Source: a virus
Strand: one strand, 5' to 3'
Virus record (IMG/VR): IMGVR_UViG_3300042482_000679
DNA: 64,000 nt
Numbering within the stretch: position 1 is the stretch's first letter; the number at the start of each line of letters is the position of its first letter. The position numbers and the translations under genes are program-made. Positions 33,846-58,805 of the stretch are shown one piece after another. The notes under the pieces are model-generated. The model had not been told where the DNA came from, did not search any database, and saw nothing but the letters and a program-made list of their open reading frames with translations.

Positions 33846-35708
33846 TTACGAATTCAGCAACTTATCAAGTTCTTCACCCATTTTTCCTAAACTTTGTTGT
33901 CCAACACCTAAATCTAAAAATTTGTTACCATACATATCACTCTCTAAAAGGATATTCATATCTCTATCCATTTTGGATTCTGGCGCTAACTCTGGCGCGC
34001 CAGCTTCAGGTGCCGGTGGTGGAGGAACCTCTCCACCCGCTTCTGGCGCGGTCTCAAAACCACCGCCTCCACCTGCGAATATATCTTCACCTGGAGGTGG
34101 CGTTGTAGTCTCGCCTGCGGGTTCTTGACCTGTTGCTGGTAGATTACCTTGTTTGTTACCATAAAGTTTATCAATTGTATCAAAGATACCTGTTTTAGAA
34201 ATAACTGTTGGTGTATTTTTAAGCTCTTCACCCACAGCCTTTTCAAGTCTTTGTTGTAGTAGGTCAACTCTAATTTCTTCATCAGACCATTGGAATATAT
34301 GTTTTTTGGCCCAAGTTGATGAGGTTGGTTGAATACCATTTCCTGGGTCAGTAACCATATCTTTATACAATAACATTTTTTCTTTCCAAATGTCAATCTT
34401 AAGAAGGTCTGCTTGTGTTGATGGGTTTGTTAATCCCAATTCAAAATTAGATATCTCTTCTTCAAAACCTAAAAGGAACAAGTGAATAATTGCAATTTTA
34501 TTCATTTCTTGAACCATAGATTTTTGAATTCTATTAATGGTTCTTGCAAATCTGATATCCATCAGTGCCAAGCTTTTACCATCACCTACGGTTTCTTCAA
34601 ATCCTAAAAATGCTTTTGGTATACGAAGTGCTGTAACAAGTTTCTTTTGAATATATTCAATATCTGCAATTTCAGATAAGTTCTGTGCACCAGGTAATGT
34701 GTCAATTGGACTTGGCGCTGCAGGGTCTCTTACAGGAATAAAATAATCTTGGTCAACCGCCATTTGGTTAAATCTCATATCTACGTTACCTGTTTTAGAA
34801 TCAACAATTTGTTCTCTTTTAAACTTGTTGGCAACACGTTGTACGTAAGCCTCAACATCATCGTCGTTCATATTTCCGACATATACTTTGAAGACCCTAC
34901 GTTCAGGGGCTCTTGAAGTACGGTATATCAACATCGCGTCCTCCGATAATAGAAGTTGTTTCCAAATTCTACGGGACTTTTCCAACATAGATGTACCATA
35001 CGGCAATTTACGGTCATCACCCAATAATCTAAAGTGAGCAATTTCCCAAGGTTGGAATTCCATATTCTTTTCTTTCCAATAGAATTTCAATCCTTTATTT
35101 TTAGTGTAATCGTTACCTATGTTTGGAGATACTGAACCATCCATAAGTCCACTTTCAACCCTTTCAACTTCAATGTTTGGTAACTGAACACAACCAACAA
35201 CACCCTTTTCAGGGTCCAATCTTAGATAAACAAAATTGTCACCATACTTACAAGTGTTTCTAGTCCACATAGGTAAGTTAGTGTTAATATCTAAGTTATT
35301 ATTGAATAAATCCGCTAATACAGATTTAATCCTTTTTGATTCTGAATAAATCTGTAATACAAAACCATCTTCATTAGGTGTTGTAGATTCTTCAGCGTAA
35401 ATGTCTAAGGCTGCAGAAATTTCTGGAGTATACTCCATAGACTCATAGTCATAATAAGATGATAATCTATTTGGTTGGTAGTATACTGCTTGAGTGTATA
35501 AATTATTCTCTACCTTAGCAAATTGTCCTGCCAAGTAAGCGGTTTGTCTTGCTTGGAGTTTTTCCTTTTCATATTCGGCTTTATCGGTAGTTCTTAAAAG
35601 TTCTTTTTTATCAAACTTAAATACAGGAAAATCCTGATTCATTAACGCGTCAGGACCTAAGGCTCTACCTAATCTTTGCCAAACTGTAAATTGCTTATTT
35701 TCTGCCAT
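33846..35708 (-). CDS. Portal protein (T4 gp20-like)
   Basis: PEISAALDIYAEE, PYGTSMLE, EDAMLIYRTSRAPERRVF, DYFIPVR, LPGAQNL. Confidence 0.96.
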   Translation of the reverse strand: MAENKQFTVWQRLGRALGPDALMNQDFPVFKFDKKELLRTTDKAEYEKEKLQARQTAYLAGQFAKVENNLYTQAVYYQPNRLSSYYDYESMEYTPEISAALDIYAEESTTPNEDGFVLQIYSESKRIKSVLADLFNNNLDINTNLPMWTRNTCKYGDNFVYLRLDPEKGVVGCVQLPNIEVERVESGLMDGSVSPNIGNDYTKNKGLKFYWKEKNMEFQPWEIAHFRLLGDDRKLPYGTSMLEKSRRIWKQLLLSEDAMLIYRTSRAPERRVFKVYVGNMNDDDVEAYVQRVANKFKREQIVDSKTGNVDMRFNQMAVDQDYFIPVRDPAAPSPIDTLPGAQNLSEIADIEYIQKKLVTALRIPKAFLGFEETVGDGKSLALMDIRFARTINRIQKSMVQEMNKIAIIHLFLLGFEEEISNFELGLTNPSTQADLLKIDIWKEKMLLYKDMVTDPGNGIQPTSSTWAKKHIFQWSDEEIRVDLLQQRLEKAVGEELKNTPTVISKTGIFDTIDKLYGNKQGNLPATGQEPAGETTTPPPGEDIFAGGGGGFETAPEAGGEVPPPPAPEAGAPELAPESKMDRDMNILLESDMYGNKFLDLGVGQQSLGKMGEELDKLLNS

Positions 35709-35746: not shown

Positions 35747-37513
35747 CTATCGAGAACCAAACAGCCATTTATATTTCTCATAATCATTTTTAGAGGGTTC
35801 ATAATTCCTACTATGTTGTTGTTGATTCGGAAATTGTGGTATTGACGGATTAAAATATTGTGAACTATCTTTATGTTCATTTACAGTTGTGGACCAAGAA
35901 TCAATCATTGCTTTAGTGTGATTAACCACCTTAGTCAATGAAGGGAACGCCGCTTCAGCAGCATACAACGCCATTGAAATTGACATAATACAATCATCGT
36001 GATGTCCTCTTTGGTGGTCAGGTCTACCATTTATGTATACAAATGTTCCCATTTCACCTAATAATCTACTTGACCTGACTTTAAAGTCGTGTCTAATTGC
36101 CTCCTCAAATGATGCAATGATTTGAACTCTTTTTGAATTAAAATTAATACCAGGTATTTTTTCATTTTGTTTAGGGTCATATTTCCATTTGTTGGTTAAG
36201 TCAACACCATCATAATAGAAATTTTTATACCCTAATTCTTGTAATCTTCTTGATGTCGCAACACCCATACCCCCCGTTAAGTCAACAATACATAAAGCAT
36301 TATACATTGTTCCCCACTTGTACGCAATCTCTGCTAATACATCGGGTGGTATTTTACCAACAAATTCTAAAACCTGTTCTCTTGAGTCAAAATCAATGAT
36401 TTCAATACACGAGAAGTCTTCTGAATCTCCCCTTGATACATCAACACCCATCACATATTTGTGATTATTTTCAGGTTCTTTCCATATCCAAAGTTGGTTA
36501 CCCATTAATTTGGCTGTTGGTTCTTTTACATCATTCTCAGAAATTTTTTGGGTTAATAAAGAATCAAATACGTTATCACCTGAACCCAAGAAATTACATT
36601 CCAATTCCTGAGCAACTTTTCGTTTGTCGTACTTGAGTTTTTTAACCATACTCTCAAACCAACTTGAACAAGGTTTATATCCTTGTTCCATATATGTTTG
36701 AATTAGTTCAATATCTCTGTCGTATGGATTTTCATCGGGTAATTGTCTTACAACGTCTTTGGGGTATTCTTCCTTATTTAACAAATAATGAACAATATCC
36801 TCACATTTAACCATATACAAATCTTTGGTATAACGAGGGTCACGGAACCAATACATTGGCGTGATTTTGAAGTCGTTCATACCTCTTTGTGCTTGGTCGT
36901 AAATTTCGTAGTAAATCGGGTCGTATCCGTTAGGTGTTGATATTACAACAACTTTACCACCCGTAGATAGTGAGGCCATACAAGCCGCCCAGAAATCACT
37001 GTCAGCTTCAATAAACGCCGCCTCGTCAAATATTAATATCGTGGGGGTATAACCACGTAAGGCATCTTTAGATGTGGCAACCGCCTTAACTTCACATCCA
37101 TTAGTTAATTTAAAGTGTCTGGCAGAGTTTTTTTCACCTGAGAACCCAATACCAACCCAGTTCGGCCATTGTTCCGTAAAAGCTCTAATTTTATTAGCAA
37201 ATTCTACAGATGTTTCTAATTTATTGGCAATAATAAGAATCTTTTCAGGTTTTTCTTTTCGAGCAAACGCTAATCGTTTACTTGCCCAACCTGCAGTAAC
37301 CGTAGATACACCCGCCTGACGATACTTCAATGCAATGTTTTCATTATACATTTCGTAATCGTTAACAAGTGTTACTTGGTCTTTAAATAATTCTAAGGGA
37401 ACATACTTTGATACTGTGTTATCGTATGTTTGTAGATATGTTTTAAGAGCATAAGGAGTGCTTTTCATACACTTCTTATACTCTATTAAAACTTGTTCTT
37501 TTGTTAAACTCAT
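35747..37513 (-). CDS. Terminase large subunit (T4 gp17-like)
   Basis: KYRQAGVST Walker A, IFDEAAF Walker B, ISTPNG, nuclease GVDVSRG and HDDCIM. Confidence 0.96.
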   Translation of the reverse strand: MSLTKEQVLIEYKKCMKSTPYALKTYLQTYDNTVSKYVPLELFKDQVTLVNDYEMYNENIALKYRQAGVSTVTAGWASKRLAFARKEKPEKILIIANKLETSVEFANKIRAFTEQWPNWVGIGFSGEKNSARHFKLTNGCEVKAVATSKDALRGYTPTILIFDEAAFIEADSDFWAACMASLSTGGKVVVISTPNGYDPIYYEIYDQAQRGMNDFKITPMYWFRDPRYTKDLYMVKCEDIVHYLLNKEEYPKDVVRQLPDENPYDRDIELIQTYMEQGYKPCSSWFESMVKKLKYDKRKVAQELECNFLGSGDNVFDSLLTQKISENDVKEPTAKLMGNQLWIWKEPENNHKYVMGVDVSRGDSEDFSCIEIIDFDSREQVLEFVGKIPPDVLAEIAYKWGTMYNALCIVDLTGGMGVATSRRLQELGYKNFYYDGVDLTNKWKYDPKQNEKIPGINFNSKRVQIIASFEEAIRHDFKVRSSRLLGEMGTFVYINGRPDHQRGHHDDCIMSISMALYAAEAAFPSLTKVVNHTKAMIDSWSTTVNEHKDSSQYFNPSIPQFPNQQQHSRNYEPSKNDYEKYKWLFGSR

Positions 37514-41198: not shown

Positions 41199-42872
41199 TT
41201 AGCTGTTAATTCCATCGAATCCTCCGATTCTAATAGCACTTAAATCTATAACAACACCCTTTTTATTTTGTGGGTTCCAATCAACTGGGTGAGGAGGTTG
41301 GTCGGGGAATGGCGGTGACTCCCAAGTACCACCACTAAAGCTTCCTAAAATATCCGCAGTATACGCATATTGGTCGTTAACATCTAAACCAAAACCAAAT
41401 GGAGTTGGAGTTGGTGTTGGAGTTGCGGTGTTTGTTGTTGTTGGTGACGGTGTTACGTCAGCAGTTGTTGATGGTGTGGGTGTGTTACTATTTGTAACAG
41501 TTGGTGTAGGTGTGTTAGATGCTGTAATTGATGGTGTTGGTGTTGGTGTTTTAGTAGGTGTGTTAGTTGGAGTTTTTGTTGGAGTTGGTGTTGAAGTTTG
41601 TGCCGGTGTTGTTGATGGTGTATTTGAAGGTGTTACTGTTTGAGTTGCGGTCTGTGTTGGTGTTTTAGTTGGAGTTGGAGTTGTTGTTGTAGTGTTAGAC
41701 GGTGTAGGTGTAGGAGTTTTGGTATTTGTTGGTGTAGGTGTTGGAGTGGCATTTGTTAAACACTCGATACAATTTTGCCAAGGACCTGTTACAACTGTTG
41801 CCAAGTTATAAAGACTTGATGATGAACCACCAATAATTGTTAAACATAATTCACCTGAACCTACAACATTTAGTTTATAAATTTTTCCTGTCGCTAAACT
41901 TGAGTCGTTTAATGCTAATGTATACGTACTAGATGACGTACATTCCTGTACAAAATATTTCACTAAAGCTTCAGGACTTTCACTTGGTGTAATTGAAGGT
42001 GTAATTGAAGGTGTTGGTGTATTTGTAACCGTAGGAGTATTTGTTGAAGTTATTGTTGGTGTATTAGTTGGTGTGACCGCTGGTGTTCCTGTCGGTGTAT
42101 TTGTTGCGGTAGTAGTTGGTGTGTTAGTTGATGTGACAGTCGGAGTATTAGTTGATGTTATGGTAGGTGTGTTAGTTGGAGTTACTGTTGCAGTATTAGT
42201 TGGAGTTACTGTCGCAGTATTAGTTGGAGTTACTGTCGCAGTATTTGTAGGAGTGTTAGTCTGTGTTGCTGTATTTGTAGGTGTATTAGTTGGGGTTGAT
42301 GTTGGAGTTGCGGTCGTACCTGTATATGGGTCAGTAGATGTTGGAGTTGGTGTTGTTGTAGAAGTATTTGTTGGTGTTTGTGTTGGTGTTGCAGTAGGTG
42401 TTGGGGTTGGCAAAGGCCCAACTTGTACAGTAATTGAATCTGCGGTTGGTCCTGAACCCCAAGTCCAAGTATATGAACCAGTATTTATTCCCAAAGTTGC
42501 AAAACTTTTATTAGTAAAAGTTGCAATTGTTGGTCCTATTTCATTTCCAGAAACATATGATTCATCAAGATATAAGGTTGCTGTTCTTGGCGTACAACAT
42601 TCACCAACACCAAAACTAAGACCACTACCTGACCTATTAAATGAATTTGTAAAACTACCAGCACCCATATCATAGTTTTGTAACGCCAAACCAGTCCACG
42701 CTCTTACTTGGGTAATACCGGTGCTTAATAAAGAAACCCTGTCCTCAGATGGGTAAATTGTTGACCCTAAAGTTAAAGTAACACCTGATGTTAATGATGA
42801 AGTGTTAGCAGTACCTCCACCAGACATTACAACGTCGGCTCCAACTTCAAGTATAGTAATTAATATTGACAT
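41199..42872 (-). CDS. Thr/Pro-rich mucin-like putative virion surface protein
   Basis: Two long TPTNT-type repeat tracts separating three globular segments; late motif upstream. Confidence 0.75.
   Translation of the reverse strand: MSILITILEVGADVVMSGGGTANTSSLTSGVTLTLGSTIYPSEDRVSLLSTGITQVRAWTGLALQNYDMGAGSFTNSFNRSGSGLSFGVGECCTPRTATLYLDESYVSGNEIGPTIATFTNKSFATLGINTGSYTWTWGSGPTADSITVQVGPLPTPTPTATPTQTPTNTSTTTPTPTSTDPYTGTTATPTSTPTNTPTNTATQTNTPTNTATVTPTNTATVTPTNTATVTPTNTPTITSTNTPTVTSTNTPTTTATNTPTGTPAVTPTNTPTITSTNTPTVTNTPTPSITPSITPSESPEALVKYFVQECTSSSTYTLALNDSSLATGKIYKLNVVGSGELCLTIIGGSSSSLYNLATVVTGPWQNCIECLTNATPTPTPTNTKTPTPTPSNTTTTTPTPTKTPTQTATQTVTPSNTPSTTPAQTSTPTPTKTPTNTPTKTPTPTPSITASNTPTPTVTNSNTPTPSTTADVTPSPTTTNTATPTPTPTPFGFGLDVNDQYAYTADILGSFSGGTWESPPFPDQPPHPVDWNPQNKKGVVIDLSAIRIGGFDGINS
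41401..42410 (-). repeat. Degenerate coding tandem repeats (TPTNT/TPTVT), two tracts
   Basis: Includes 24-nt units such as GTATTAGTTGGAGTTACTGTCGCA at about 42170-42240. Confidence 0.85.
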
Positions 42873-42937: not shown

Positions 42938-43690
42938 TTAGTCGATATTTTTTACTTCAACGGAAAGTTCTTTATCCATTTGATTGTTGATAGTATCATA
43001 CAATTTTTCAATAAGACCTGACCTTCTTAGATATTTGAAAACCAAATTCTCATACGAGTATTCACCTTCTTTCTCCAAACCTGAAGTTCTATATTCTTTC
43101 AATTTATCCTTAAGAGCCAAAATTTTAGATTCAGTTTTTTCAACACCATCCTTTTTAATTTGGAGAATCAAATTTTGAAGTTTCTGTTTCCAAGAAAGAA
43201 TTTTTGTTTCCAATAAATCTCTATCTATTTTTGAATTTTCTCTTTCGGGAACATTTAACCATTTATCATCTGAAATTGAATAAACACCTGAAGAATAATG
43301 AGCTTCTTTGGCATCTTGGGCGTACAACTCAACCTCGTAACCAAAAATTACGATGTCGTGTTTTTCATTAAAAAGTTGTTTTTTAAGGTTAAACAATTCT
43401 TTGTGTAAATCTTCTTGTTTTTTGAATTGTGAGAAATCAATTACAACGTGTAAATCAAAGTCTGAAAATTTTGACCAGTTATAATTTGCCAACGAACCTG
43501 TTAATATAATATCTTCAACTTTAATATCATCACCAAGACTATCGATAAAAGCATCCGCAATTTTTAATAAAGCCCTTTTTACTTTTGACTTCATTTTTGC
43601 ATCTTTAGCTTCCTCAGGATTTTCCCAAACTTTAGGGTTTAAGGTTTCTCTAAGTGAAAAACTATCAATAATGTCGTTAACTTTCTCCAT
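42938..43690 (-). CDS. Pol-beta-superfamily nucleotidyltransferase
   Basis: LTGSLANYNWSKFSDFDLHVV (GS...DxD) plus third acidic residue in VELY. Confidence 0.8.
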   Translation of the reverse strand: MEKVNDIIDSFSLRETLNPKVWENPEEAKDAKMKSKVKRALLKIADAFIDSLGDDIKVEDIILTGSLANYNWSKFSDFDLHVVIDFSQFKKQEDLHKELFNLKKQLFNEKHDIVIFGYEVELYAQDAKEAHYSSGVYSISDDKWLNVPERENSKIDRDLLETKILSWKQKLQNLILQIKKDGVEKTESKILALKDKLKEYRTSGLEKEGEYSYENLVFKYLRRSGLIEKLYDTINNQMDKELSVEVKNID

Positions 43691-43707
43691 TATTAATAAA
43701 TAGATAG

Positions 43708-43953
43708 TTATTCTACTTTCTTATACTTGAATTTTTTTGATATCTCAGAATTGAAGAATTTACCCTGTGATTCGGACATTCTGAATTTTGTGTATGTTGC
43801 GTGTGGTACATCTTCATATTCGTATCTCACGCCATTTTTGAACTCTGCAATCATTTTTTTGGTTGCAGTATCATATTCTGTTCTTGTAATATTACTTGAC
43901 TCAATCTCGTTGAGTATTTTTGTTCCGTCTATAATTTCTCTTTTAATTGCCAT
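43708..43953 (-). CDS. KTSC-domain protein
   Basis: ESSNI....YD......EFKNG..YEY.DVP...Y..F..SESQGKFFN. Confidence 0.9.
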   Translation of the reverse strand: MAIKREIIDGTKILNEIESSNITRTEYDTATKKMIAEFKNGVRYEYEDVPHATYTKFRMSESQGKFFNSEISKKFKYKKVE

Positions 43954-44242
43954 CGTTTAAAGGGAATAACTCATTTATCTTCTCCAATCTTTTGTGGATA
44001 ATTAAATTTAAATCATTTTCTTCCAAATTAAACATATCAGACAATTCCTTCTTTAACATATGTAAATAATAATTAAACTCATCGTGAGCTTTAAATAATT
44101 CTACGGTCATATTCGAAACCTTAGCCGCGGTTTCCTCTGTATAACCAAGTCTTTTTAATTCTTTTCTAATTCTAATATAGGCATCAAAAAGTGATGAATA
44201 GTTAAAAGAACCATCAAGATATTTGTTCACTATCTTTTCCAT
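43943..44242 (-). CDS. Hypothetical protein
   Basis: 99 aa, late-like motif 4 nt upstream. Confidence 0.6.
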   Translation of the reverse strand: MEKIVNKYLDGSFNYSSLFDAYIRIRKELKRLGYTEETAAKVSNMTVELFKAHDEFNYYLHMLKKELSDMFNLEENDLNLIIHKRLEKINELFPLNDGN

Positions 44243-44288: not shown

Positions 44289-44735
44289 TTATTCATATTT
44301 TCTCAACTCGTTTCGTATCTCAATCGCTGATTCAAAATCTTGTGTTTCGATTGCCGATTTCAATTTAGACTGTAGTTCTTCTACCTTGTCTTTATTCTCT
44401 TCAATTGATTTAATCATATCACGAAGTTTAATTGCCAATAAGAAATCTTCAGTCTCAACCGCTCTTTCGAGTTCTGCTTTTAGTCTTTCAACTTTATTCT
44501 CAGATTGTTTTGGTTTTCTCAATTTAGATTTAAGACCATCTTTGTCACTTCCAAAGTAGGACTTATAAATTACGGTTGATTTCCAAGTACCATCTGGTGA
44601 TGTGTAACTTTCACTGGTCCATTCACCTTCTTCATCTTTACCCGTTTTAAAATCTTTTTTAAAGTCTTTAAAAGGGTCTCCACCGAACATTGATTCAAAC
44701 ATTTCGTTTAGGTCGTCAAAATTAAATCTTCTCAT
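44289..44735 (-). CDS. Tandem UVR (UvrB/UvrC coiled-coil) domain protein
   Basis: LKAELERAVETEDFLLAIKLRDMI and LQSKLKSAIETQDFESAIEIRNEL. Confidence 0.85.
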   Translation of the reverse strand: MRRFNFDDLNEMFESMFGGDPFKDFKKDFKTGKDEEGEWTSESYTSPDGTWKSTVIYKSYFGSDKDGLKSKLRKPKQSENKVERLKAELERAVETEDFLLAIKLRDMIKSIEENKDKVEELQSKLKSAIETQDFESAIEIRNELRKYE

Positions 44736-44783
44736 AGTATTTTTTTTATTAAATATAAATGTTTATTTTTGTAGAGACAATAG

Positions 44784-44855
44784 TCAATTTGAATGCCAAA
44801 TGGAAATATATGACATTTTGTCAGTATCACAAAAAACTTAACTGACAATTTTTCA
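44784..44855 (-). promoter_or_regulatory. Sigma54-like promoter plus two TGACA-N3-TGTCA-type palindromes
   Basis: Minus-strand TGGCA-N6-TTGA at 44784-44798; TGACATTTTGTCA at 44811-44823; TGACAATTTTTCA at 44843-44855. Confidence 0.55.
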
Positions 44856-44859
44856 GTTG

Positions 44860-44891
44860 TTTGGATTTGTATGAAAATTGTTATACCTTTG
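44860..44891 (+). promoter_or_regulatory. Bacteroidota-type primary sigma promoter for clpC
   Basis: TTTG (44860) - 20 nt - TACCTTTG (44884). Confidence 0.7.
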
Positions 44892-44908
44892 TAAAAAAAT
44901 AGAAAACT

Positions 44909-46909
44909 ATGAATGGATTAATGGATGATGACGAAAAACCTCTAAGCCAACGTAAATCTTCTGATTCTTCAACACCTGTGTTGGACAATTTCAGTAGAGA
45001 CCTTATTAAGTTAGCTGAAGATGGTAAACTTGACCCTGTTGTTGGTCGTGAACAAGAGATTCTACGAATTGCACAAGTTTTATCACGTAGGAAGAAAAAC
45101 AACCCAATTATCTTGGGGGAACCTGGTTGTGGTAAAACCGCGATTGTCGAAGGATTGGCAATGTTGATTCACAAAGGTGAGTGTCCAAAGAATTTGTTGG
45201 ATAAACGAATTGTTACTTTGGATTTGACATCTGTGGTTGCAGGAACCAAGTATCGTGGTCAGTTTGAAGAACGACTAAAGGTTATCTTGGAAGAACTTCA
45301 AAACAACCCGAATATCATCGTGTTCATTGATGAGATTCATACGTTGATTGGTTCAGGTAACTCATCAGGTTCTCTTGATGGTTCCAACATCTTTAAACCA
45401 GCTCTTGCTCGTGGAGAACTCCAATGTATCGGAGCGACTACTTTGGATGAGTATCGTAAGTCGTTTGAGAAAGATGGGGCGTTGGAACGTCGTTTTCAAA
45501 AAATTATGGTTGACGCATCAACACCTGCAGAAACTGTAATTATCCTTAACAATGTCAAGGATAAGTATGAGTCTTACCATAAGGTAACCTATTCAGATGA
45601 GGTAATTGAATTGTGTGTAAAGTTGGCTGACCGTTACATCACAGACCGTCAATTCCCTGACAAAGCCTTTGATATTCTGGATGAGGTTGGGGCTCGTGCT
45701 CAAACTGAGGTTAAAATACCTGAAGCAATTGAGGACCTGAAACGTAAAGCGGCTGAAATCAAACAACAAAAACTTGATGTTGTAAAACGTCAAAACTTTG
45801 AACAAGCAGCCGAATTACGTGACAAGGAACGTAAAATCTTGGCAAAACTTGAATCTGAAAAGAAAAAGTTTGAAGAGGAGTCATCAACCAATCGTACCTC
45901 GATTACTGTTGATAATGTTTATGATGTGGTTTCGTCTATGACAAAAATTCCTGTAAACAAAATGACAATCGATGACACTAACGCACTTATCAATATGGAT
46001 AGTGTTATTAAGTCTAAGGTAATCGGTCAGGATGAGGCGGTAGAAAAGATTGTTAAATCAATCCGTAGAAACCGAATTGGTATCAAAGACCCTAATCGTC
46101 CAATTGGTTCATTTATTTTCTTGGGTTCTACTGGTGTTGGTAAAACTCACTTGGCTAAACAAATCGCCAAAGAAATGTTTGGTTCAGAAGATTCGATGAT
46201 TCGTGTGGATATGTCCGAGTATCAAGAAAAACACACGGTATCTCGATTGGTCGGAGCACCTCCAGGATACGTTGGTTATGATGAAGGTGGTATGTTGACA
46301 GAACAAGTCAAAAACAAACCATACTCAGTAATCCTATTTGATGAGGTTGAAAAGGCTCACCGAGACATCTTCTCAATCCTACTTCAAATCCTTGATGATG
46401 GTCACGTTACTGATTCATTGGGTCGTAAGATTAACTTCAAGAATACCTTGATTATTATGACCACAAACTTGGGTGTTAAAAAATTGTCTGATTTTGGTTC
46501 AGGTATTGGTTTCTCATCAAACAAATACTCAAACGAAGAAGCCAAAAAACAGATGTTGATGAAAGAACTCAAAACTTTCTTCTCACCTGAGTTTTTGAAC
46601 CGTGTAGATGACACCATCGTGTTCCAAACTTTATCGAAAGAAAATATCGATAAAATCACCAAACTTGAATTGGATAAATTGGTGACTCGTTTGACTGATA
46701 TGAATTATCAAATTACATATAGTCCTTCGTTGATTGAATTTATCTCAAAAGTTGGGTTTGATGAAATATATGGAGCACGTCCTATCAAAAGGGCTATTCA
46801 AGATAAGGTCGAAGATTTTATCTCTGAGATGGTCCTGACAGGTAAAATCAAGGAAGGTAAAAAAATCAATCTTACCGTCCAAGATGAGACAGTAAAAATT
46901 GGTAAGTAA
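44909..46909 (+). CDS. clpC: ClpC-like AAA+ unfoldase lacking the N-terminal domain
   Basis: Two AAA modules ([14 protein letters not shown]; [17 protein letters not shown]), UVR-type middle domain ([11 protein letters not shown]), GIGF ClpP-docking loop. Confidence 0.9.
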
Positions 46910-46951: not shown

Positions 46952-47578
46952 ATGCGTGATAGAATTAAACAAATTTTACAAGAACAAATCGACCTTAAAA
47001 AAATAGGTATTGAAGTTGAACCTTCAGATAGAGTTGTACGTAGTATTTGTGATGCTAAGAAATTTTGTGATGCTCAAGGACCTATAACATTTGGTCAATT
47101 AAGAACTATTATCGAATCGGCAATAAAGGAACGATTGGGTAAACATATTGGCGAGGGTGGGTTTAAAGCAACATTAAGATTATTACCTTGGTTTTTACCA
47201 CAATTAGCGGTTGCGGGATTTGGTGCTGCAATTATGAGAGCTGCAAATAAAATTATTAAACCTTCATTAACTGAAACCCAAAATTACAAGACTTGGTGGG
47301 GTAAAACAATTTTAAGACTTATGGATGCAGTTGAGGGTGACCTTCCTCTTTCAGACCCATTTAGTAAAATATTTTTTATATCAGATGGTTTAATGAGCTT
47401 AATGGACGATGAGAGTAAAGTTAAATTTGCTCGTCATATTGCAGAAATTGCTAACAGAATGCCAGACGATGAACCAGTGCCAGAGTTTTTTGTAGAAAAC
47501 GAATTAAGAAATTGGGTTAATAAAAGATTTTTATTAGACCCACCACTTGAACCAAAGGGAATAAAAAAAGAGGACTAA
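46952..47578 (+). CDS. Hypothetical late protein
   Basis: TATTTATA 4 nt upstream; leader MRDRIKQILQE. Confidence 0.65.
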   Translation: MRDRIKQILQEQIDLKKIGIEVEPSDRVVRSICDAKKFCDAQGPITFGQLRTIIESAIKERLGKHIGEGGFKATLRLLPWFLPQLAVAGFGAAIMRAANKIIKPSLTETQNYKTWWGKTILRLMDAVEGDLPLSDPFSKIFFISDGLMSLMDDESKVKFARHIAEIANRMPDDEPVPEFFVENELRNWVNKRFLLDPPLEPKGIKKED

Positions 47579-49859: not shown

Positions 49860-50255
49860 GGGGGTGCCTTGGTATTGATTGGCGTTGCTGGGCATCGGGG
49901 GCACGTAGTGAGAAGTTTCCTATCACTATAATCTACGGAGGCGATTTTTAACTGGCAATACTTTTGCTAAACTTTCTGCTCTCGGTCTTATGAGAGAAGA
50001 AAAAGTTGCTGTAGCCTAAGAGGTATACACAACACGGGGTCGATGGACATTAACCTAGCAACAGAAGTCCTTTAAGGTGTGGTTTCTATCCAAAAAGGAA
50101 CAAAACGGGTATGGTTCCCCGTAAGAACTGTCACCGTCGCTGAGCGGTGTGAGAACTCAGATATTTCGGAAGGTATGAAAAACCTTGACCTAAACGTGTA
50201 GTCCCTAATGGTTAGGGCGAGCAAGACGGGGGTTCGACTCCCCCCACCTCCACCA
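49860..50255 (+). ncRNA. ssrA: tmRNA
   Basis: Acceptor GGGGGTG/CACCTCC-A-CCA with G3:U wobble; T-arm GGGGG-TTCGACT-CCCCC; tag ORF 49954-50019 after TAACT. Confidence 0.93.
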
Positions 50256-50733: not shown

Positions 50734-50820
50734 GGAGGTTTGGCAGAGCGGTCGAATGCGGCAGTCTTGAAAACTGCTTTACGGGAAACTGTAACCGGGG
50801 TTCGAATCCCTGAGCCTCCG
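50734..50820 (+). tRNA. tRNA-Ser(TGA)
   Basis: GGAGGTT/AGCCTCC acceptor, GCAGT-CTTGAAA-ACTGC, long variable arm; no encoded CCA. Confidence 0.95.
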
Positions 50821-50826
50821 CTAAGA

Positions 50827-50858
50827 AATCTTGGGACATCATCCCAAGATTTTTTTTT
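50827..50858 (+). terminator. Intrinsic terminator
   Basis: AAATCTTGGGA-CATCA-TCCCAAGATTT followed by a T-tract. Confidence 0.8.
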
Positions 50859-50895
50859 GTTTGACAAATCCATTTTAAATCTTTAACTTTGAACT

Positions 50896-51225
50896 ATGGA
50901 ACTATTAAAAGAATTTTGGACAAAAGTGAAAAGTGGTCTTAGAATCGTTGTTAACTACTTTTTCATTATCCTGGGTATGGTGGGATGCTTTACCATTGGA
51001 TACTATTACAACGCATTACGTGATTTCAACAAGATTGGTAAACCTAAAATTTATAAGGCAATTGACCACACGTTGGCAATCGACGAAAACAATAATGGCA
51101 TCATTATTGAAAATCGTAGAGGTACCTACATTGTATTGGACGCTGAATTGGTGACCAAGTTCTTTGATATCAAAGCACGAAATATGTGGGGACAACACCA
51201 AACACCAAAACCTGTAGAGAAATGA
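50896..51225 (+). CDS. Single-pass membrane protein
   Basis: Hydrophobic segment IVVNYFFIILGMVGCFTIGYYY; promoter TTTG-N20-TAACTTTG at 50860-50891. Confidence 0.7.
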   Translation: MELLKEFWTKVKSGLRIVVNYFFIILGMVGCFTIGYYYNALRDFNKIGKPKIYKAIDHTLAIDENNNGIIIENRRGTYIVLDAELVTKFFDIKARNMWGQHQTPKPVEK

Positions 51226-51296
51226 TGAGTGTTTGGTATAACCGAATTCTCCACCTGTTAGCAGGTATTGCGGTGGGGTATTTAATCTTTGTTTAA
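51222..51296 (+). CDS. 24-aa hydrophobic peptide (not in the ORF track)
   Basis: MMSVWYNRILHLLAGIAVGYLIFV; ATGA overlap, fills the intergenic gap. Confidence 0.45.
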   Translation: MMSVWYNRILHLLAGIAVGYLIFV

Positions 51297-51306
51297 AAAA
51301 AATGTT

Positions 51307-51870
51307 ATGACAGTAAAAAGGACCATTACAACAGTTTATCTCCTAATCACCATTATGGTGTTAACAGTAGGATACCAATTAGCCAAGAATAAATTCGTTT
51401 ATCAACCTAATGGTATTGAAGAAATGGGGTATGAGTCCACTTTGCCAACGTCATTGTATATGTATAATCTACTTGAGGACAAGTCCGAAGAATACGGTAT
51501 CCCCAAACATATCTTATACAATGTCGCTTATTTGGAGACACGTTATTGTGGTCCTTTTCACGTCAACTACAACCCACATCAAAGGTCTTATGCCGGAGCA
51601 GTGGGACCGATGCAAATCATTACAAGATACTCGCATTCATATGCGGGTAGACGAGTTAAAGAGACCGAATTAAAAAATAATCTGAAACTTAATATCGACA
51701 TTTCTTGTAAGATGCTCAAAAAATTACACGGTATGTATGGGCGATGGGATTTGGCTCTTGGATATTACAATACAGGTTATCCACAAGTTAATGGTTACGC
51801 ACGATACGCATCATCCACAATTGATTACAAACAAAAATGGGTGAAACCAAAAACTCAAACAACTCTATGA
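51307..51870 (+). CDS. Lytic transglycosylase (SLT domain) with N-terminal membrane anchor
   Basis: VAYLET catalytic Glu, GAVGPMQI, ALGYYNTG. Confidence 0.88.
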   Translation: MTVKRTITTVYLLITIMVLTVGYQLAKNKFVYQPNGIEEMGYESTLPTSLYMYNLLEDKSEEYGIPKHILYNVAYLETRYCGPFHVNYNPHQRSYAGAVGPMQIITRYSHSYAGRRVKETELKNNLKLNIDISCKMLKKLHGMYGRWDLALGYYNTGYPQVNGYARYASSTIDYKQKWVKPKTQTTL

Positions 51871-52217
51871 CGAAACTACAAGACGCTATCTTTATATTCT
51901 TTGTTTATTTAATTTCTCAAATATTCGTATTCTACCAACTCCAAGGTCATCTTTGGAACAAATGGATTAAAGACCACCCATTTCTTATGGCACTCTTTGG
52001 ACTACCACTTGGATATTTGGTTATATTAGGGTCTCGTAAGATGGTTGCACTGTGTGACGGTCAAACTTGGCCAAATCGAATTTTAGGTTTTACTCTTGGA
52101 GTAATAGTATTTACTATTATGGCTTGGGTTTACCTTAAAGAACCCTTATCATTAAAAACAGGTGTATTACTTTTTTTATGTTTCTTAATAATTTGCATTC
52201 AATTGTTTTGGAAATAA
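51867..52217 (+). CDS. Four-TM small membrane protein (DMT/SMR-like)
   Basis: Four hydrophobic helices, LKEPLS motif; ATGA overlap at 51867. Confidence 0.7.
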   Translation: MTKLQDAIFIFFVYLISQIFVFYQLQGHLWNKWIKDHPFLMALFGLPLGYLVILGSRKMVALCDGQTWPNRILGFTLGVIVFTIMAWVYLKEPLSLKTGVLLFLCFLIICIQLFWK

Positions 52218-52255
52218 GAAAATCAGTCGTATATTTGTAGAGTTAAAAACAATAT

Positions 52256-52329
<74 letters not shown>

Positions 52330-52333
52330 CAAA

Positions 52334-52525
52334 ATGACAGACTTGTATTTAGATTCAAAAGAAATCCGAAAGAAACGATACCAAGGGGTAAATCCCGAAG
52401 GTTTTGTTCTTGTATCAGAAGAAGCTTTGGATAAGCTACGTGACTTTGAAATATGGAAAAAATGGAAGAATAATGAAATCGATTTAATTGATTTGGAATT
52501 CGAAGAAAATCATTTGACAGAATAA
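52334..52525 (+). CDS. Hypothetical protein
   Basis: 63 aa from ATG at 52334; the upstream start in the track lies inside the tRNA. Confidence 0.55.
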   Translation: MTDLYLDSKEIRKKRYQGVNPEGFVLVSEEALDKLRDFEIWKKWKNNEIDLIDLEFEENHLTE

Positions 52526-52553
52526 TTATCTTTGTTATATTTCTGTAACACAA

Positions 52554-52627
52554 GCCTCTATAGCTTTAATCGGTAGAGCACCTGACTTGTAATCAGGGGG
52601 TTGGCGGTTCGAGTCCGTCTGGAGGCT
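52554..52627 (+). tRNA. tRNA-Thr(TGT)
   Basis: GCCTCTA/TGGAGGC, CCTGA-CTTGTAA-TCAGG. Confidence 0.95.
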
Positions 52628-52643
52628 CAAAAAAAAAATCATT

Positions 52644-52823
52644 ATGACAAACAAGAATCCAAAAACAACTGATAAAAAGGTGAAAACCACTGAAAACGAT
52701 TTTCGTATTGTTGCTGAGGGTAAACTAAAAGGTCGTAAAGATATATCTAAAGATGAAAATAAAGATAATCCGTGGAAATGTGAATGGGATAATGTCCACG
52801 GTGATGTAATTCACTTTAGATAA
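52644..52823 (+). CDS. Hypothetical protein (59 aa; not in the ORF track)
   Basis: MTNKNPKTTDKK...GDVIHFR, fills the gap between two tRNAs. Confidence 0.5.
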   Translation: MTNKNPKTTDKKVKTTENDFRIVAEGKLKGRKDISKDENKDNPWKCEWDNVHGDVIHFR

Positions 52824-52827
52824 AAAA

Positions 52828-52903
52828 GCGGGAGTAGCTCAGTTGGTAGAGCTTCAGCCTTCCAAGCTGAAAGTCGCGAGTTCGAGTCTCGTCTCCCGCT
52901 CCA
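52828..52903 (+). tRNA. tRNA-Gly(TCC)
   Basis: GCGGGAG/CTCCCGC-T-CCA, TCAGC-CTTCCAA-GCTGA. Confidence 0.96.
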
Positions 52904-52904
52904 T

Positions 52905-53010
52905 AAGGGAATCCGGCTTTATGGTGAAGGACACGCTGGCGGATGACATTCAGAGATTGTCTTTAAAGAACTCGAAACCATAAGTCTTGTGATGGAGGTC
53001 CCTTCCACCA
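52905..53010 (+). ncRNA. Candidate structured ncRNA (unclassified)
   Basis: Nested helices AAGGGA/TCCCTT, GGCTTTATGGT/ACCATAAGTC, AAGGACA/TGTCTTT; ends CCACCA. Confidence 0.45.
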
Positions 53011-53015
53011 CACAA

Positions 53016-53088
53016 GCGAGAGTAGCTCAGTTGGTAGAGCACAACCTTGCCAAGGTTGGGGTCGCGAGTTCGAATCTCGTCTCTCGCT
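53016..53088 (+). tRNA. tRNA-Gly(GCC)
   Basis: GCGAGAG/CTCTCGC, CAACC-TTGCCAA-GGTTG. Confidence 0.96.
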
Positions 53089-53132
53089 CAATCTGAATTA
53101 AAACACAGAGTAAACCAAATTTAAAAACCAAA

Positions 53133-53303
53133 ATGAAAAAAGTAGTATTTTTATTGTTTTCTTTAGTTCTTTTGGCTTCTTGTGGTAACGAGGCGACTCC
53201 TGCCGTTGAACCATCTTCAGTTGACACAACTGAAGTTGTTGTTGACAGCACTGTAGTTGATTCAACAGTTACTCCTGAAGTTGAAGTTGCACCTGCTAAG
53301 TAA
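53133..53303 (+). CDS. Small lipoprotein (56 aa; not in the ORF track)
   Basis: MKKVVFLLFSLVLLAS-C lipobox; DTT/DST/DST motifs; terminator at about 53325-53350. Confidence 0.8.
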   Translation: MKKVVFLLFSLVLLASCGNEATPAVEPSSVDTTEVVVDSTVVDSTVTPEVEVAPAK

Positions 53304-53374
53304 TTACAGAGGTAACACGGACTTAAAAGGGACCTCGTGTCCCTTTTTTTATGCTTTAAACTATTTATAACAAT

Positions 53375-54697
53375 ATGAAACGAGTTTTAAGAGAAGAAAT
53401 AAATTCAATGAAATCATTAATGAAAATTAATGAAGACTTTGTTACTGTTTCTTCAGTTGGATTTGATAACATCACAACAGATAATGATTCAACAAAGTCT
53501 GATAAAATAAATCGTGCGCTTCTTAAAGATATTAGTAGAGCAGCTAAAAAGGCTGGTGTAAAAGTAACTATCACAACTGCTAATTCAGGTCACAATATGA
53601 GAACTAAATCCGGCACCTTAAGTAGACATAATACTAATCAAGCCGTCGATATTGCGATGATTGATGGTGTTGGTTCAGGTGGAGCGACTAATGCAACTAA
53701 TGGTAACCCTAAATTTAAATCAGGTGGAGATAAATTAGTCGCCGCTCTTGAAAGTATGGGTTATACGAGAAATGCTGAAGGACCCCAAAACCCAAAGGCA
53801 GTTTTTTGGCAAACTAATTCAGGTGGTAATCATTTTAATCACGTACACGTTTCAAACACAACTGGCGAATCATCTAAAGAAAGTGACGATAATTTTGAAA
53901 TTACACCTGAAAGAGAGGAAGAATTGAAAAAAATTGCACAGGGTGTTTCCAATCAGGAGAAAAAAACTGGTGATTTTGAAGCAATATTTAAAATGGCTGA
54001 CACACTTAAATCTACTCTTAATAGAGCATCGGTAAATGCAGGTATAAAAGAGCAGTTTGATGATAGTGAAAGAGTTTCTGGTGTAGGTTTGGTTAAATCT
54101 AAACATCAGGGAAAAATAGTTCCTAACACACTTATAAAGAAAAACTGTGATGATTCATTAGTAATCAGGTTTAGGATGAATAATAGTACATACTATGTAG
54201 AATACTGTAATTTAGAAAAAACTTATAAATCTACAGGTGAAAATGTATACGTTGGCGATAAATTAGGTGAATCCTCAGATACTGTTTATTTAAGTTATTT
54301 TAACTATAAAGGTGACAAAATTAATAAAGACATTATTAGCTCACCTAAAACTGAGCCTGAAGAAATAGACGATGAAAAACCTACAGATTCTGTAAAATCA
54401 AAAGGATTAAAAATATTTCAAGATGATTCTGGAAGTACAGGTGAAACGTTTGCAGACTCTTTTTATAACCTATTTCAAAATTTAAACCCTTTAACCAGTA
54501 GATACGCTATAGACTCAGAAACAGGCAAACCTGTTAAAGTACATCAGGGTGGTCTTGCAACAACACGTAGTAAAGATTCTAAACCAAAAATGGATTATTT
54601 AAAAAGAATAGGATACGCATCAACTAAATCAGGTGCAAAAACCAGAGGTAAAAGTCTTAAAGAAGAAATGGAAATAATGAAAAAATTAATGAAATAA
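53375..54697 (+). CDS. Protein with peptidase M15-like (Hedgehog/DD-peptidase fold) domain
   Basis: SRH....AVD and NHVHV Zn-ligand motifs; possible degenerate M23-like segment; late motif 5 nt upstream. Confidence 0.65.
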   Translation: MKRVLREEINSMKSLMKINEDFVTVSSVGFDNITTDNDSTKSDKINRALLKDISRAAKKAGVKVTITTANSGHNMRTKSGTLSRHNTNQAVDIAMIDGVGSGGATNATNGNPKFKSGGDKLVAALESMGYTRNAEGPQNPKAVFWQTNSGGNHFNHVHVSNTTGESSKESDDNFEITPEREEELKKIAQGVSNQEKKTGDFEAIFKMADTLKSTLNRASVNAGIKEQFDDSERVSGVGLVKSKHQGKIVPNTLIKKNCDDSLVIRFRMNNSTYYVEYCNLEKTYKSTGENVYVGDKLGESSDTVYLSYFNYKGDKINKDIISSPKTEPEEIDDEKPTDSVKSKGLKIFQDDSGSTGETFADSFYNLFQNLNPLTSRYAIDSETGKPVKVHQGGLATTRSKDSKPKMDYLKRIGYASTKSGAKTRGKSLKEEMEIMKKLMK

Positions 54698-54724
54698 AAA
54701 AAAGGGACTTAGGTCCCTTTTTTT
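54696..54724. terminator. Bidirectional terminator
   Basis: AAAAGGGAC-TTAG-GTCCCTTTT with A- and T-tracts. Confidence 0.85.
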
Positions 54725-54727
54725 ATG

Positions 54728-54815
54728 CGGTGGGTGAGGGGCTCGAACCCTCGCGCCGGTTACCCGACCTATCAGTTTAGCAAACTGACCCCTTCACCAA
54801 CTTGGGTAACCCACC
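54728..54815 (-). tRNA. tRNA-Ser(GCT)
   Basis: GGTGGGT/ACCCACC, TCAGT-TTGCTAA-ACTGA, long variable arm. Confidence 0.95.
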
Positions 54816-54820
54816 AAAGA

Positions 54821-55465
54821 TTACTCTTCATCATCATAAACACCTGACTCCAAATCGTCAAGAGTAAATAGATGAATTTCTAATGATTTACCAGTAAACC
54901 ATTCATCCTCAAAGTCTTTTTCAAGTTCTTGGTTCTTGTAAAACATTTTATCCATAACCTCATAATCAAAAATTGGTGATTCTAAACTCTGAGCAGTAAA
55001 GCCAAAGTCTTCAAATTTAGGTACCTCATCAGACTCAATATGATAATTACAAATTGTCCCTTTAACATCCTCAATCAAACAAAGAATGTTTTCGTGACCT
55101 TCGTGAGGGTATGCGTCGATAACCTGACCAACTTCTTCTAAATTTGGTATTTCACCATATTTGTCTTGTAAATCGTATATGTCTGTGAGTTCTTCCCACC
55201 CTTTTTCCCATATAACATTTCCATTTTCGTCAATCAAAACAAACATAAGTCTATCGTTAACATATGGTCGAGATGCCACCCACCAGTTAGTATCATAGTG
55301 GTCATAATTCTCAATTAAGTCAGGTATCATTGAATACATCTCACTGAGTTCTTCGTGATTACCTTCTTCTTTAGCATTAAGAATAATTTCAACTTCTTCA
55401 GAAGTTAGGTTATGGGCAGATGCCTCCATACCAAAACCATTAACCAATAATTTATATTTAGCCAT
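54821..55465 (-). CDS. Acidic hypothetical protein
   Basis: 214 aa ORF. Confidence 0.7.
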   Translation of the reverse strand: MAKYKLLVNGFGMEASAHNLTSEEVEIILNAKEEGNHEELSEMYSMIPDLIENYDHYDTNWWVASRPYVNDRLMFVLIDENGNVIWEKGWEELTDIYDLQDKYGEIPNLEEVGQVIDAYPHEGHENILCLIEDVKGTICNYHIESDEVPKFEDFGFTAQSLESPIFDYEVMDKMFYKNQELEKDFEDEWFTGKSLEIHLFTLDDLESGVYDDEE

Positions 55466-55466
55466 T

Positions 55467-55631
55467 TTATTTAAAATTAGAATTGTTTAACCAAATTGTA
55501 TCACCCTTTTTATATTCACCTTTAGAGTATACAACGCCTTTTAAACCCTCATCTGTTTTACACATATATGAGTTATATTCTTTTCCCACAGAAACCAATG
55601 AGATAACAATCAAAAACGCAATTGTTTTCAT
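55467..55631 (-). CDS. Small protein with hydrophobic N-terminus (54 aa; not in the ORF track)
   Basis: MKTIAFLIVISLVSVG...; tightly packed in the operon. Confidence 0.55.
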   Translation of the reverse strand: MKTIAFLIVISLVSVGKEYNSYMCKTDEGLKGVVYSKGEYKKGDTIWLNNSNFK

Positions 55632-55780
55632 TCTTCTTCCTCCTTATCATTTTGATTTGTTGGTAATGCTCCGACAAATAAAGACATTAAAATCCACCAA
55701 GGACTTTGTGTTAAATAAACAACATATCCGACAAGTGCGAGATATGCCAAGGCAACTAAAGTGTAAGAAACGTATTTCAT
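55628..55780 (-). CDS. Small membrane protein (50 aa; not in the ORF track)
   Basis: MKYVSYTLVALAYLALVGYVVYLTQSPWWILMSLFVGA...; overlaps both neighbours. Confidence 0.6.
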   Translation of the reverse strand: MKYVSYTLVALAYLALVGYVVYLTQSPWWILMSLFVGALPTNQNDKEEEE

Positions 55781-56373
55781 TATTGTAAGAATTTTAAAAC
55801 TTTCTCTTTTACTCCTGATTGTTTAATACCCTCGTATTGTTGTGGTGTATGTACGAAATTAGTTAAACCAGGTTTTTCGTCAAGACCATCTTTATGTGTA
55901 AAATGATTTGATAAAAAATCTACAGACATATCCAAATCATCAATTGACACCCAATGAGTAATTTCAGGATGAGTTTCTAAATAATGTTGGATTTCAATTG
56001 AACGTTCCAATTCTAAATCGGCACGGAATCGTAGTATGTTCCATTTTTCAGGTGCGATATCTTCAGTTCTTGGTGTTGTTGCAATTGGAGCTTTTAGGAT
56101 ACCTTGAGATAGGTAGTATTCACCAAGTTCCTCCAACGTGGCGTGAAATCTCCAATCTGAAGATACAACTATTTCAGCACCAGTCTCTTCTAAAATAGAA
56201 TTTAGGACTTTAATTGCTTTATCATCAAAATCGTCAAATCGATATTGAATAGGAATTTCTCTATTGGTCATAGACATTTTTCTACCACCCCATTTTTTTT
56301 GTTTCTTCATCCTACCACCCCAATTGTTTGCAAGACAAATTACACCATCGTTATCTAGGAATATTACTTTCAT
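55780..56373 (-). CDS. HAD phosphatase of the Swiss-army-knife RNA-repair type
   Basis: MKVIFLDNDGV, IVVSSDWR, WVSIDD; start at 56373 just after TATCTTTG. Confidence 0.8.
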   Translation of the reverse strand: MKVIFLDNDGVICLANNWGGRMKKQKKWGGRKMSMTNREIPIQYRFDDFDDKAIKVLNSILEETGAEIVVSSDWRFHATLEELGEYYLSQGILKAPIATTPRTEDIAPEKWNILRFRADLELERSIEIQHYLETHPEITHWVSIDDLDMSVDFLSNHFTHKDGLDEKPGLTNFVHTPQQYEGIKQSGVKEKVLKFLQ

Positions 56374-56405
56374 AGAACAAAGATAATACAATCTTGTAGT
56401 AATTC

Positions 56406-57641: not shown

Positions 57642-57655
57642 ACTATTAAATAGTA

Positions 57656-57820
57656 TTATTGGTCTCTTTCATCTAATATTTGAAGGTACAATGATTCTGT
57701 CATAAGATGGCCACTTTGTTTGCCTACTAAATCACAAAAAAGACCTTTTTGTAAAATAGAATAGTCCTTGGGGTCAATAATCACCCAAGGACCTTCGTTT
57801 CTAATGTCGTTACGTTTCAT
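57656..57820 (-). CDS. Hypothetical protein (54 aa; not in the ORF track)
   Basis: MKRNDIRNEGPWVIIDP...; TAATG junction. Confidence 0.5.
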   Translation of the reverse strand: MKRNDIRNEGPWVIIDPKDYSILQKGLFCDLVGKQSGHLMTESLYLQILDERDQ

Positions 57821-57957
57821 TATGGTTGTGTTAATACCAAAAATACGGCAACAATTCCAATCACCAATAGTCCCAAAAAAGCCATTGCTAGACTAAATTC
57901 AACTTGGTCTTTTGTTTTACCTTGCCAATCTTCAGGGTTCCATTCTTCTTTTTTCAT
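57820..57957 (-). CDS. Small membrane protein (45 aa; not in the ORF track)
   Basis: MKKEEWNPEDWQGK...LAMAFLGLLVIGIVAVFLVL; overlaps both neighbours. Confidence 0.6.
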   Translation of the reverse strand: MKKEEWNPEDWQGKTKDQVEFSLAMAFLGLLVIGIVAVFLVLTQP

Positions 57958-58388: not shown

Positions 58389-58404
58389 ATTTGTAGTTTT
58401 TAAT

Positions 58405-58498: not shown

Positions 58499-58500
58499 TG

Positions 58501-58572: not shown

Positions 58573-58588
58573 AAATTAAGATAAGTTG

Positions 58589-58799: not shown

Positions 58800-58805
58800 A
58801 TGTTG

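Follow-up and report, generated by a model that had tools for sequence, protein, structure and literature searches.

A ClpC unfoldase without an N-domain in a freshwater jumbo phage lineage, divergent from an exchangeable tandem-UVR or small heat shock protein gene

The IMG/VR virus record IMGVR_UViG_3300042482_000679 contains a 64,000-nucleotide stretch of DNA, here called the window, in which a clpC gene and a gene for a tandem-UVR protein diverge from a common control region (Table 1). The clpC product is a double-ring AAA+ unfoldase that lacks the N-terminal domain (N-domain) of ClpC, and its neighbour is a 148-amino-acid (aa) protein with two UVR motifs. In sister phages this neighbour is swapped for a small heat shock protein (sHSP), and the lineage carries ClpP and a transfer-messenger RNA (tmRNA). 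The major capsid protein, portal and large terminase (TerL) encoded in the window have strong PHROG matches and identify a tailed phage, in agreement with an earlier note on this DNA, made from the sequence alone, which had taken the ATPase for a phage gene. We classified 82 loci, comprising the window, 80 related IMG/VR loci with a ClpC of 70–87% identity, and the more distant locus L004.

Table 1. Features of the clpC region and structural genes of the window
Feature	Position	Strand	Basis or details
Tandem-UVR protein, 148 aa	44289..44735	-	Pfam UVR 6e-15, two stretches; homologues
Phe/Met-rich N-terminal peptide, residues 1-24	44664..44735	-	Weak likeness to sister-phage sHSP N-termini
Predicted three-stranded beta segment, residues 26-59, conserved W...SPDG core	44559..44660	-	AlphaFold2 (AF2), predicted local distance difference test (pLDDT) about 75
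UVR hairpin 1, residues 77-113, core EDFLLAIKLRD at 44418-44450	44397..44507	-	Pfam, AF2
UVR hairpin 2, residues 114-148, core QDFESAIEIRN at 44310-44342	44292..44396	-	Pfam, AF2
Divergent control region, common to both genes	44736..44908	.	Palindrome TGACA-N3-TGTCA 44811-44823, near copy 44843-44855
ClpC-type double-ring AAA+ unfoldase without N-domain, 666 aa	44909..46909	+	Pfam, PHROG, alignment to S. aureus ClpC
Acidic low-complexity leader of 21 residues in place of the N-domain, corresponding to the N-D1 linker	44909..44971	+	Alignment
AAA1 ring	44972..45712	+	Walker A 45116-45139, pore loop KYRG 45248-45259, Walker B 45320-45340
Short ClpC-type M-domain with UVR motif	45713..45913	+	Alignment, conservation
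AAA2 ring and D2-small domain	45914..46870	+	Walker A 46124-46147, pore loop GYVGY 46265-46279, Walker B 46331-46357, ClpP-docking loop GIGF 46502-46513
Open reading frame (ORF), 208 aa, without family match	46952-47578	+	43 bp downstream of clpC
M42/M20/M28-related peptidase, 276 aa	47595-48425	-	phrog_4191, 1.5e-37
Phage tmRNA	49860-50255	+	ARAGORN; Rfam RF00023, 89 bits, E 8e-34
Major capsid protein	27987-29792		PHROG
Portal	33846-35708		PHROG
TerL	35747-37513		PHROG

Analysis of the 666-aa protein with Pfam identified the domains AAA (residues 68–178), AAA_lid_9 (206–306), AAA_2 (397–568) and ClpB_D2-small (575–654), together with a sub-threshold UVR match at residues 279–310 (20.2 against 21.5 bits). 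Residues 15–655 align without major gaps to residues 153–794 of Staphylococcus aureus ClpC (phmmer, E 2e-223), and the best matches among solved structures are the ClpC proteins of S. aureus and Bacillus subtilis (E about 1e-223). The M-domains align ungapped, with a core at residues 295–305 of the phage protein (45791–45823), in which the tip residues F297, R304 and D305 correspond to S. aureus F436, R443 and D444. Comparison of 65 distinct relatives revealed that the tip aromatic residue (Phe in the window, Tyr in most relatives) and the Arg-Asp pair are conserved, and that the G[IV]GF loop for docking on ClpP (GIGF at residues 532–535 in the window) is invariant. The alignment thus bears out the earlier note, which had described the UVR M-domain and the GIGF loop as retained. 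Judged by these motifs, the phage protein appears to keep all that is needed for substrate threading and ClpP docking, and by sequence it is a ClpC minus one defining feature, the N-domain. Two other identities were rejected. ClpL, a stand-alone disaggregase of Gram-positive bacteria, is likewise a double-ring Hsp100 protein without Clp_N, with an M-domain of ClpC length whose aromatic tip gives ring dimers (PDB 6lsy; PMC11006417). ClpL has an N-terminal domain of its own and no ClpP-docking loop, whereas the phage protein has a 21-residue leader and G[IV]GF, and it scores 746 bits as ClpC against 511 bits as ClpL. For ClpB/Hsp104, the two hallmarks are a long two-motif M-domain and the lack of a ClpP loop, and the phage protein shows neither; ClpB chains align to it as two stretches split at the M-domain, ClpC chains as one. 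It is not ClpE either.

The N-domain is missing from the gene and not merely from its annotation. No Clp_N (PF02861) was found in the 666-aa protein with Pfam, and TPVLDNF stands at residues 22–28, much as the earlier note had read when it placed the entry into AAA1 within about 22 residues. S. aureus residue 153, where the alignment starts, lies in the linker following the N-domain, and the match to phrog_4871 ('ATP-dependent protease') begins at profile position 163 of 764. Because an in-frame TAG (44900–44902) stands three codons before the ATG of clpC and the intergenic gap is 173 bp, no N-domain or missed N-terminal exon is hidden upstream. Nor is the N-domain provided by a separate gene, since Clp_N is absent genome-wide from the complete 321-kb relative G003 and from the 642-kb phage LR756502. 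The short leader is identical in kind in all 80 IMG/VR relatives and also in three huge phages (484–642 kb; ClpC identity 48–57%). A ClpC of 666–667 aa is very frequent in metagenomes, on contigs of up to 185 kb, and the N-less form is abundant in lake metagenomes. ClpC without the N-domain is a stable natural form. The PDB entry 8xon was considered as another natural N-less ClpC and was set aside, its source being structural work on Streptomyces ClpC1-ClpP1P2 (PMC11005422).

The divergent protein had been described in the earlier note as rich in Phe and Met at its N-terminus and as carrying two UVR helices, and both features are present: 10 of the first 30 residues are Phe or Met, and the Pfam UVR match covers two stretches. 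The protein contains no Cys. It carries the helical hairpin with the core F-x-x-A-A-x-L-R-D of the UVR family (PF02151), and the residues of the F...RD pattern in both repeats (F98/R105/D106 and F134/R141) are invariant or nearly so among the homologues. An AF2 model built from 20 sequences (mean pLDDT 71) consists of a low-confidence helix (residues 7–17), three strands (26–59), a disordered linker and the helices 77–94, 98–130 and 134–147, in which the long central helix 98–130 is common to both UVR hairpins. Hairpin 1 of this model superposes on the UVR domain of UvrB (2nmv_B) with a root mean square deviation of 0.9 Å over 38 residues (VIA-align, Z 6.5), and the hairpin of McsA (8wtb_B) superposes less closely (Z 6.1). 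The other VIA-align matches are generic helical hairpins with Z values of at most 7.2, and the beta segment is effectively outside this comparison; a Foldseek search of the PDB with the model returned nothing below E 0.03. The predicted structure confirms the UVR hairpin fold at the level of the model. The clusters of this family in the ESM Atlas are all viral, and so the family appears to be virus-only as far as the ESM Atlas reaches; no homologue was found among GenBank phages. The ratio of non-synonymous to synonymous substitution rates (dN/dS) is 0.12–0.31 for pairs with dS of 0.4–1.0, which indicates that the tandem-UVR gene is under purifying selection.

Among known proteins, the closest parallels are UVR-bearing partners of ClpC, namely McsA, which is encoded in the clpC operon (PDB 8wtb), plant CLPF, and the UVR-domain proteins trapped on CLPC1 (PMC8889267). 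Like the phage protein, these are small or modular, carry a UVR hairpin and have a genetic or physical link to ClpC. McsA works by way of McsB and bears four Cys zinc-finger motifs, whereas the phage protein has no Cys and two UVR repeats; the absence of the expected CxxC zinc fingers and the presence of two repeats instead of one led us to reject an identity with McsA. CLPF carries a YccV domain and needs the N-domain of ClpC together with ClpS1, and the phage ClpC has no N-domain. The 148-aa protein is neither MecA nor CLPF. An sHSP (Hsp20) identity was also rejected, as no match to the alpha-crystallin domain (PF00011) was found in the protein. Small UVR proteins also occur in the huge phages, elsewhere in the genome, as single-UVR proteins of 130–150 aa and as proteins of about 200 aa with a bifunctional-nuclease (DUF151)-like domain and a C-terminal UVR (L005 997–1602, plus strand; L007 1024–1611, minus strand; L010 and L011; LR745206 and LR756502). 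The DUF151-like domain was read by eye and the UVR part is a profile match; the plant UVR2-4 proteins that were trapped on CLPC1 are built in this way (PMC8889267).

Across the 82 loci, the position divergent from clpC is occupied by the tandem-UVR gene in 47, by an Hsp20-type gene in 23 and by nothing in 11, and it is cut in one. Profile searches located the UVR gene in 45 of the 80 related loci, in the window and in L004, in all 47 cases immediately upstream of clpC and in divergent orientation, and no copy away from clpC was found in the larger records that carry the gene. The UVR gene is therefore tightly and specifically linked to clpC, and the divergent pair is more than a chance arrangement, since 45 of 80 related loci and L004 share it and the gene has the low dN/dS given above. 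The Hsp20-type occupants are about 130 aa long, match Pfam Hsp20 with E values of 1e-12 to 1e-16 and finish in a C-terminal IxI-like end (ISLL, ISIL or similar); in the records G003–G007 the two types are mutually exclusive. Because the UVR label requires at least three changes on the ClpC tree and UVR and sHSP types interleave there, the occupant has been exchanged repeatedly. These exchanges qualify the proposal of the earlier note that the UVR protein switches the ATPase: as sister clades have Hsp20 or nothing in its position, such a switch is not obligatory. The ClpC leader also follows the neighbour. An acidic start of the MNxLMDDD type (residues 1–10, 44909–44938) is found in nearly all phages with a gene in the divergent position, and the ClpC proteins of the clade with the empty position begin with MIES...DGG in 7 of 7 rows, with L004 as an exception to this pattern. 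The acidic N-terminus of ClpC may be a docking or autoregulatory tail.

The exchange has left traces in the shared control region and in the 5' part of the gene. The palindrome and its near copy (Table 1) lie 32 bp apart in the window, and the palindrome is present in most UVR-type and many sHSP-type loci, either singly or as a pair spaced by about 30 bp. It was found in none of the 8 empty loci tested, and the background is 7 matches in 691 kb. This distribution suggests that a putative operator travels with the divergent gene of either type. The rest of the window lacks the palindrome, so there is no sign of a wider regulon there. With the full-length UVR and sHSP profiles, the hhalign alignment was confined to 13 columns at the N-terminus (54% identity, E 0.03). 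When the profiles were cut to about 62 residues, 49 columns aligned colinearly (E 0.007, probability 5%), placing N-peptide onto N-peptide and SPDG-x-W onto TKDG-A-Y at the start of the alpha-crystallin domain. Among about 980 N-termini, the N-terminal hidden Markov models of the two families are mutual best non-self matches (E 0.01–0.1). These likenesses are suggestive of an in-place exchange, in which the promoter and the first ~55 codons were kept and the remainder was swapped.

The same observations bear on a simpler account, in which the tandem-UVR protein would be a stand-alone, sHSP-derived holdase or co-chaperone that never contacts ClpC, and its adjacency to clpC would reflect common control of stress or late proteostasis genes. 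A bona fide Hsp20 is interchangeable with the tandem-UVR protein, the position can be empty, the operator is common to both types, the N-terminal part is weakly sHSP-like, and there is no co-variation with ClpC, all of which this account would explain. It fits poorly with the loss of the very domain that makes an sHSP work, with the gain in its place of the motif of the ClpC control arm, twice, and with the fact that the UVR gene is never away from clpC. We regard this account as unlikely, though with enough in its favour to be kept in mind.

Analysis of the larger relatives indicated that the lineage has a protease partner for ClpC. In all four that reach the expected position (G003, G004, G005 and G007), a full-length ClpP gene lies 15–30 kb downstream of clpC (about 190 bits, profile positions 5–181/182), with the Ser-His-Asp triad intact, and the huge phages have 2 or 3 ClpP genes each. 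Between 118.5 and 138.7 kb of G005 the gene order equals that of the window, which breaks off some 15 kb before the place where G005 has its ClpP; the window phage therefore very probably has its own ClpP. A tmRNA gene lies 3 kb downstream of clpC, and its tag is unusually long, with 21 residues that start with G and end in VAVA rather than LAA. Convergent with clpC and adjacent to it in 74 of 82 loci is the gene of a 276-aa peptidase with HxD, D, EE, D and H motifs resembling metal ligands; this metallopeptidase could trim peptides released by ClpP. The 208-aa ORF between the two was tried as an operon partner of clpC and rejected, as it occurs at only one other locus (L022, in a longer form). 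It is probably a recent insertion.

We are fairly confident that the phage ClpC works with the phage ClpP. In the version of the earlier note, the phage ATPase would engage host ClpP, and host ClpC could be a further target of the UVR protein. The window holds no ClpP, and host ClpC M-domains also bear the UVR motif, both of which speak for such a hijack. Phage modulators of host ClpCP are also known, for example SPO1 Gp53 (PMC6873191). It is nevertheless an improbable reading, as every larger relative reaching the expected position encodes an intact ClpP and the UVR gene is tied to the phage clpC rather than free-standing; with an intact triad in the relatives, host ClpP is not the partner that one would first expect. 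The UVR-UVR pairing of the earlier note, and any action on host ClpC, are pure inference. We give equally little credence to a role of ClpC without ClpP, in which, in the manner of ClpL or ClpB, it would disaggregate or remodel clients prepared by the sHSP or UVR protein, for instance during assembly of the large capsid. The location of clpC in the structural and packaging region, the pairing with an sHSP in sister phages and the ClpL-like ring dimers of ClpC deprived of its N-domain (PMC12583610) would suit this role. An invariant G[IV]GF loop, which ClpL and ClpB do not have, and the presence of ClpP in the lineage argue against it.

The published behaviour of S. aureus ClpC suggests how the phage pair might operate. 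In that protein the M-domain tips (F436, R443 and D444) form head-to-head contacts in the resting state, and the adaptor MecA requires the N-domain and disrupts the head-to-head contacts (PMC5699869, PMC12583610); the earlier note had stated the use of the N-domain by MecA and the M-domain resting state correctly. An engineered S. aureus ClpC without the N-domain (delta-N ClpC) forms planar hexamers paired through the M-domains, which associate with ClpP into long rods and have no proteolytic activity (PMC12583610, PMC5699869). With the additional mutation F436A, it becomes a highly active, adaptor-free, unselective and toxic protease that degrades GFP-SsrA (PMC12583610, PMC5699869). From its N-D1 linker to its C-terminus, the phage ClpC is a near-exact match in extent to this laboratory construct, and it shares its M-domain tip, ClpP loop and pore loops with the Firmicutes ClpC-ClpP/MecA system (PDB 6em8, 3j3s; PMC5699869, PMC12583610). 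As judged from the genes, it differs from Firmicutes ClpC in being naturally N-less, in having no MecA-like partner in view, in the phage ClpP of its lineage and in its UVR or sHSP neighbour. ClpC is normally kept in check by two locks: the N-domain, which binds adaptors and gates substrates, and the M-domain. The phage protein is a natural form with the M-domain lock only.

Taking these lines together, we lean slightly towards reading the locus as the unfoldase part of a Clp proteolysis module of the phage's own, joined by a cofactor gene that is optional and can be exchanged. Within it, the tandem-UVR protein probably works with ClpC as a functionally linked cofactor. Because the N-domain is lost, the M-domain is the sole regulatory surface left, and by analogy with the engineered delta-N ClpC its tip is a plausible docking site for the tandem-UVR protein. 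That the contact is direct and runs through the M-domain is possible, although we would put it at somewhat less than an even chance. The N-less phage ClpC, as the natural counterpart of delta-N ClpC with an intact tip, would be locked by its M-domain tips alone; the tandem-UVR protein would dock on these tips and, once docked, would open, remodel or else bridge the ring dimers. In an alternative role, its N-terminal part might hold clients and pass them to ClpC. The protein seems to have retained an N-terminal part like that of an sHSP, and it ends in two hairpins resembling the M-domain tip, each with the F...RD residues through which M-domains meet head-to-head. The fullest version of this reading is tentative and rather doubtful as a whole: an sHSP gene would have turned in place into a new AAA+ regulator acting only on the M-domain, with two mimics of the M-domain tip taking over from the greater part of the alpha-crystallin domain, and these mimics would compete with the head-to-head contacts that hold the ring dimers inactive, so that an adaptor-free phage ClpCP could degrade proteins tagged by the phage's tmRNA.

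A number of observations weigh against this reading or parts of it. ClpP was not found within the 64-kb window. The N-terminal part of the AF2 model of the tandem-UVR protein is of low confidence, and the likeness between the UVR and sHSP N-termini is statistically weak (E 0.007–0.1, HHalign probability 2–5%). The F...RD residues define every UVR motif and hence are not specific to mimicry of the M-domain. Comparison of ClpC proteins with UVR-type and sHSP-type neighbours revealed no residues that co-vary with the type of neighbour, in the M-domain or elsewhere, and the M-domain is identical in phages of the two types. The empty position is shared by 11 loci of one clade, with neither gene found elsewhere on those fragments, so that the divergent gene is dispensable in a whole clade. 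In addition, the huge phages with an N-less ClpC (LR756502, LR745206 and LR756508) have no such UVR or sHSP neighbour.

Should the UVR protein open this lock, it would stand as the first known case of an adaptor or anti-repressor acting purely through UVR-UVR contacts. It would show how a virus runs a degradation route of its own, and it would be a natural reagent for M-domain control, a drug-target mechanism in Staphylococcus and Mycobacterium. If it does not bind ClpC, the locus still documents the exchange or remodelling of an sHSP in place beside a conserved phage unfoldase. Clp components are known from other large phages: phage G has its own ClpXP and tmRNA (PMC12484599), SPO1 encodes Gp53, a modulator of host ClpC (PMC6873191), and the 'moraphages', freshwater jumbo phages with Bacteroidota hosts, have a Clp ATPase and a peptidase in their core and HSP20 in some members (PMC12619734). 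Like the window lineage, they are large phages carrying Clp components, tmRNA or chaperones, whereas the loss of the N-domain, a tandem-UVR neighbour and a swap with Hsp20 are not described in these papers (PMC12484599, PMC6873191, PMC12619734). In the literature searched, we found no description of a ClpC that is N-less by nature and has an exchangeable UVR or sHSP partner.

The window phage is a member of a freshwater lineage of uncultured jumbo phages of about 320 kb. Its TerL is only ~28% identical to that of any GenBank phage, the nearest being a 484-kb uncultured phage and Flavobacterium phages. For one relative, G003 (locus L036), the genome is complete, with 321,283 bp and terminal repeats, and in G001, the nearest record to the window, no ClpC, UVR gene or ClpP was found. 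No Hsp70 was found in G001, G003, G004, G005 or G007. G003 departs from the moraphages in its 321 kb, against a moraphage maximum of 307 kb (PMC12619734), and in its lack of Hsp70. By description, rather than by sequence, the window lineage resembles the moraphages. Its host is probably, by inference, a member of the Bacteroidota. To our knowledge, the adaptors MecA and McsB are not established in that phylum, which weakens the proposal of the earlier note that the phage ATPase ignores host adaptors.

Three further groups of genes surround the clpC region. Between the packaging genes and the ClpC block lies the gene of a 557-aa protein (41199–42872, minus strand) with very long Pro-Thr-rich low-complexity tracts separating its globular parts, which may be a fibre or surface protein. 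Next to the divergent position, also on the minus strand (42938–43953 and 43943–44242), are genes for a Pol-beta-type nucleotidyltransferase (phrog_36119), a KTSC-domain protein and a protein of 99–113 aa, whose order beside the UVR or sHSP position is kept in nearly all relatives. On the other side, ten tRNA genes in two clusters (50734–58877; Ser twice, Arg, Thr, Gly twice, Glu, Ala, Met and Asp) flank the proteostasis block.

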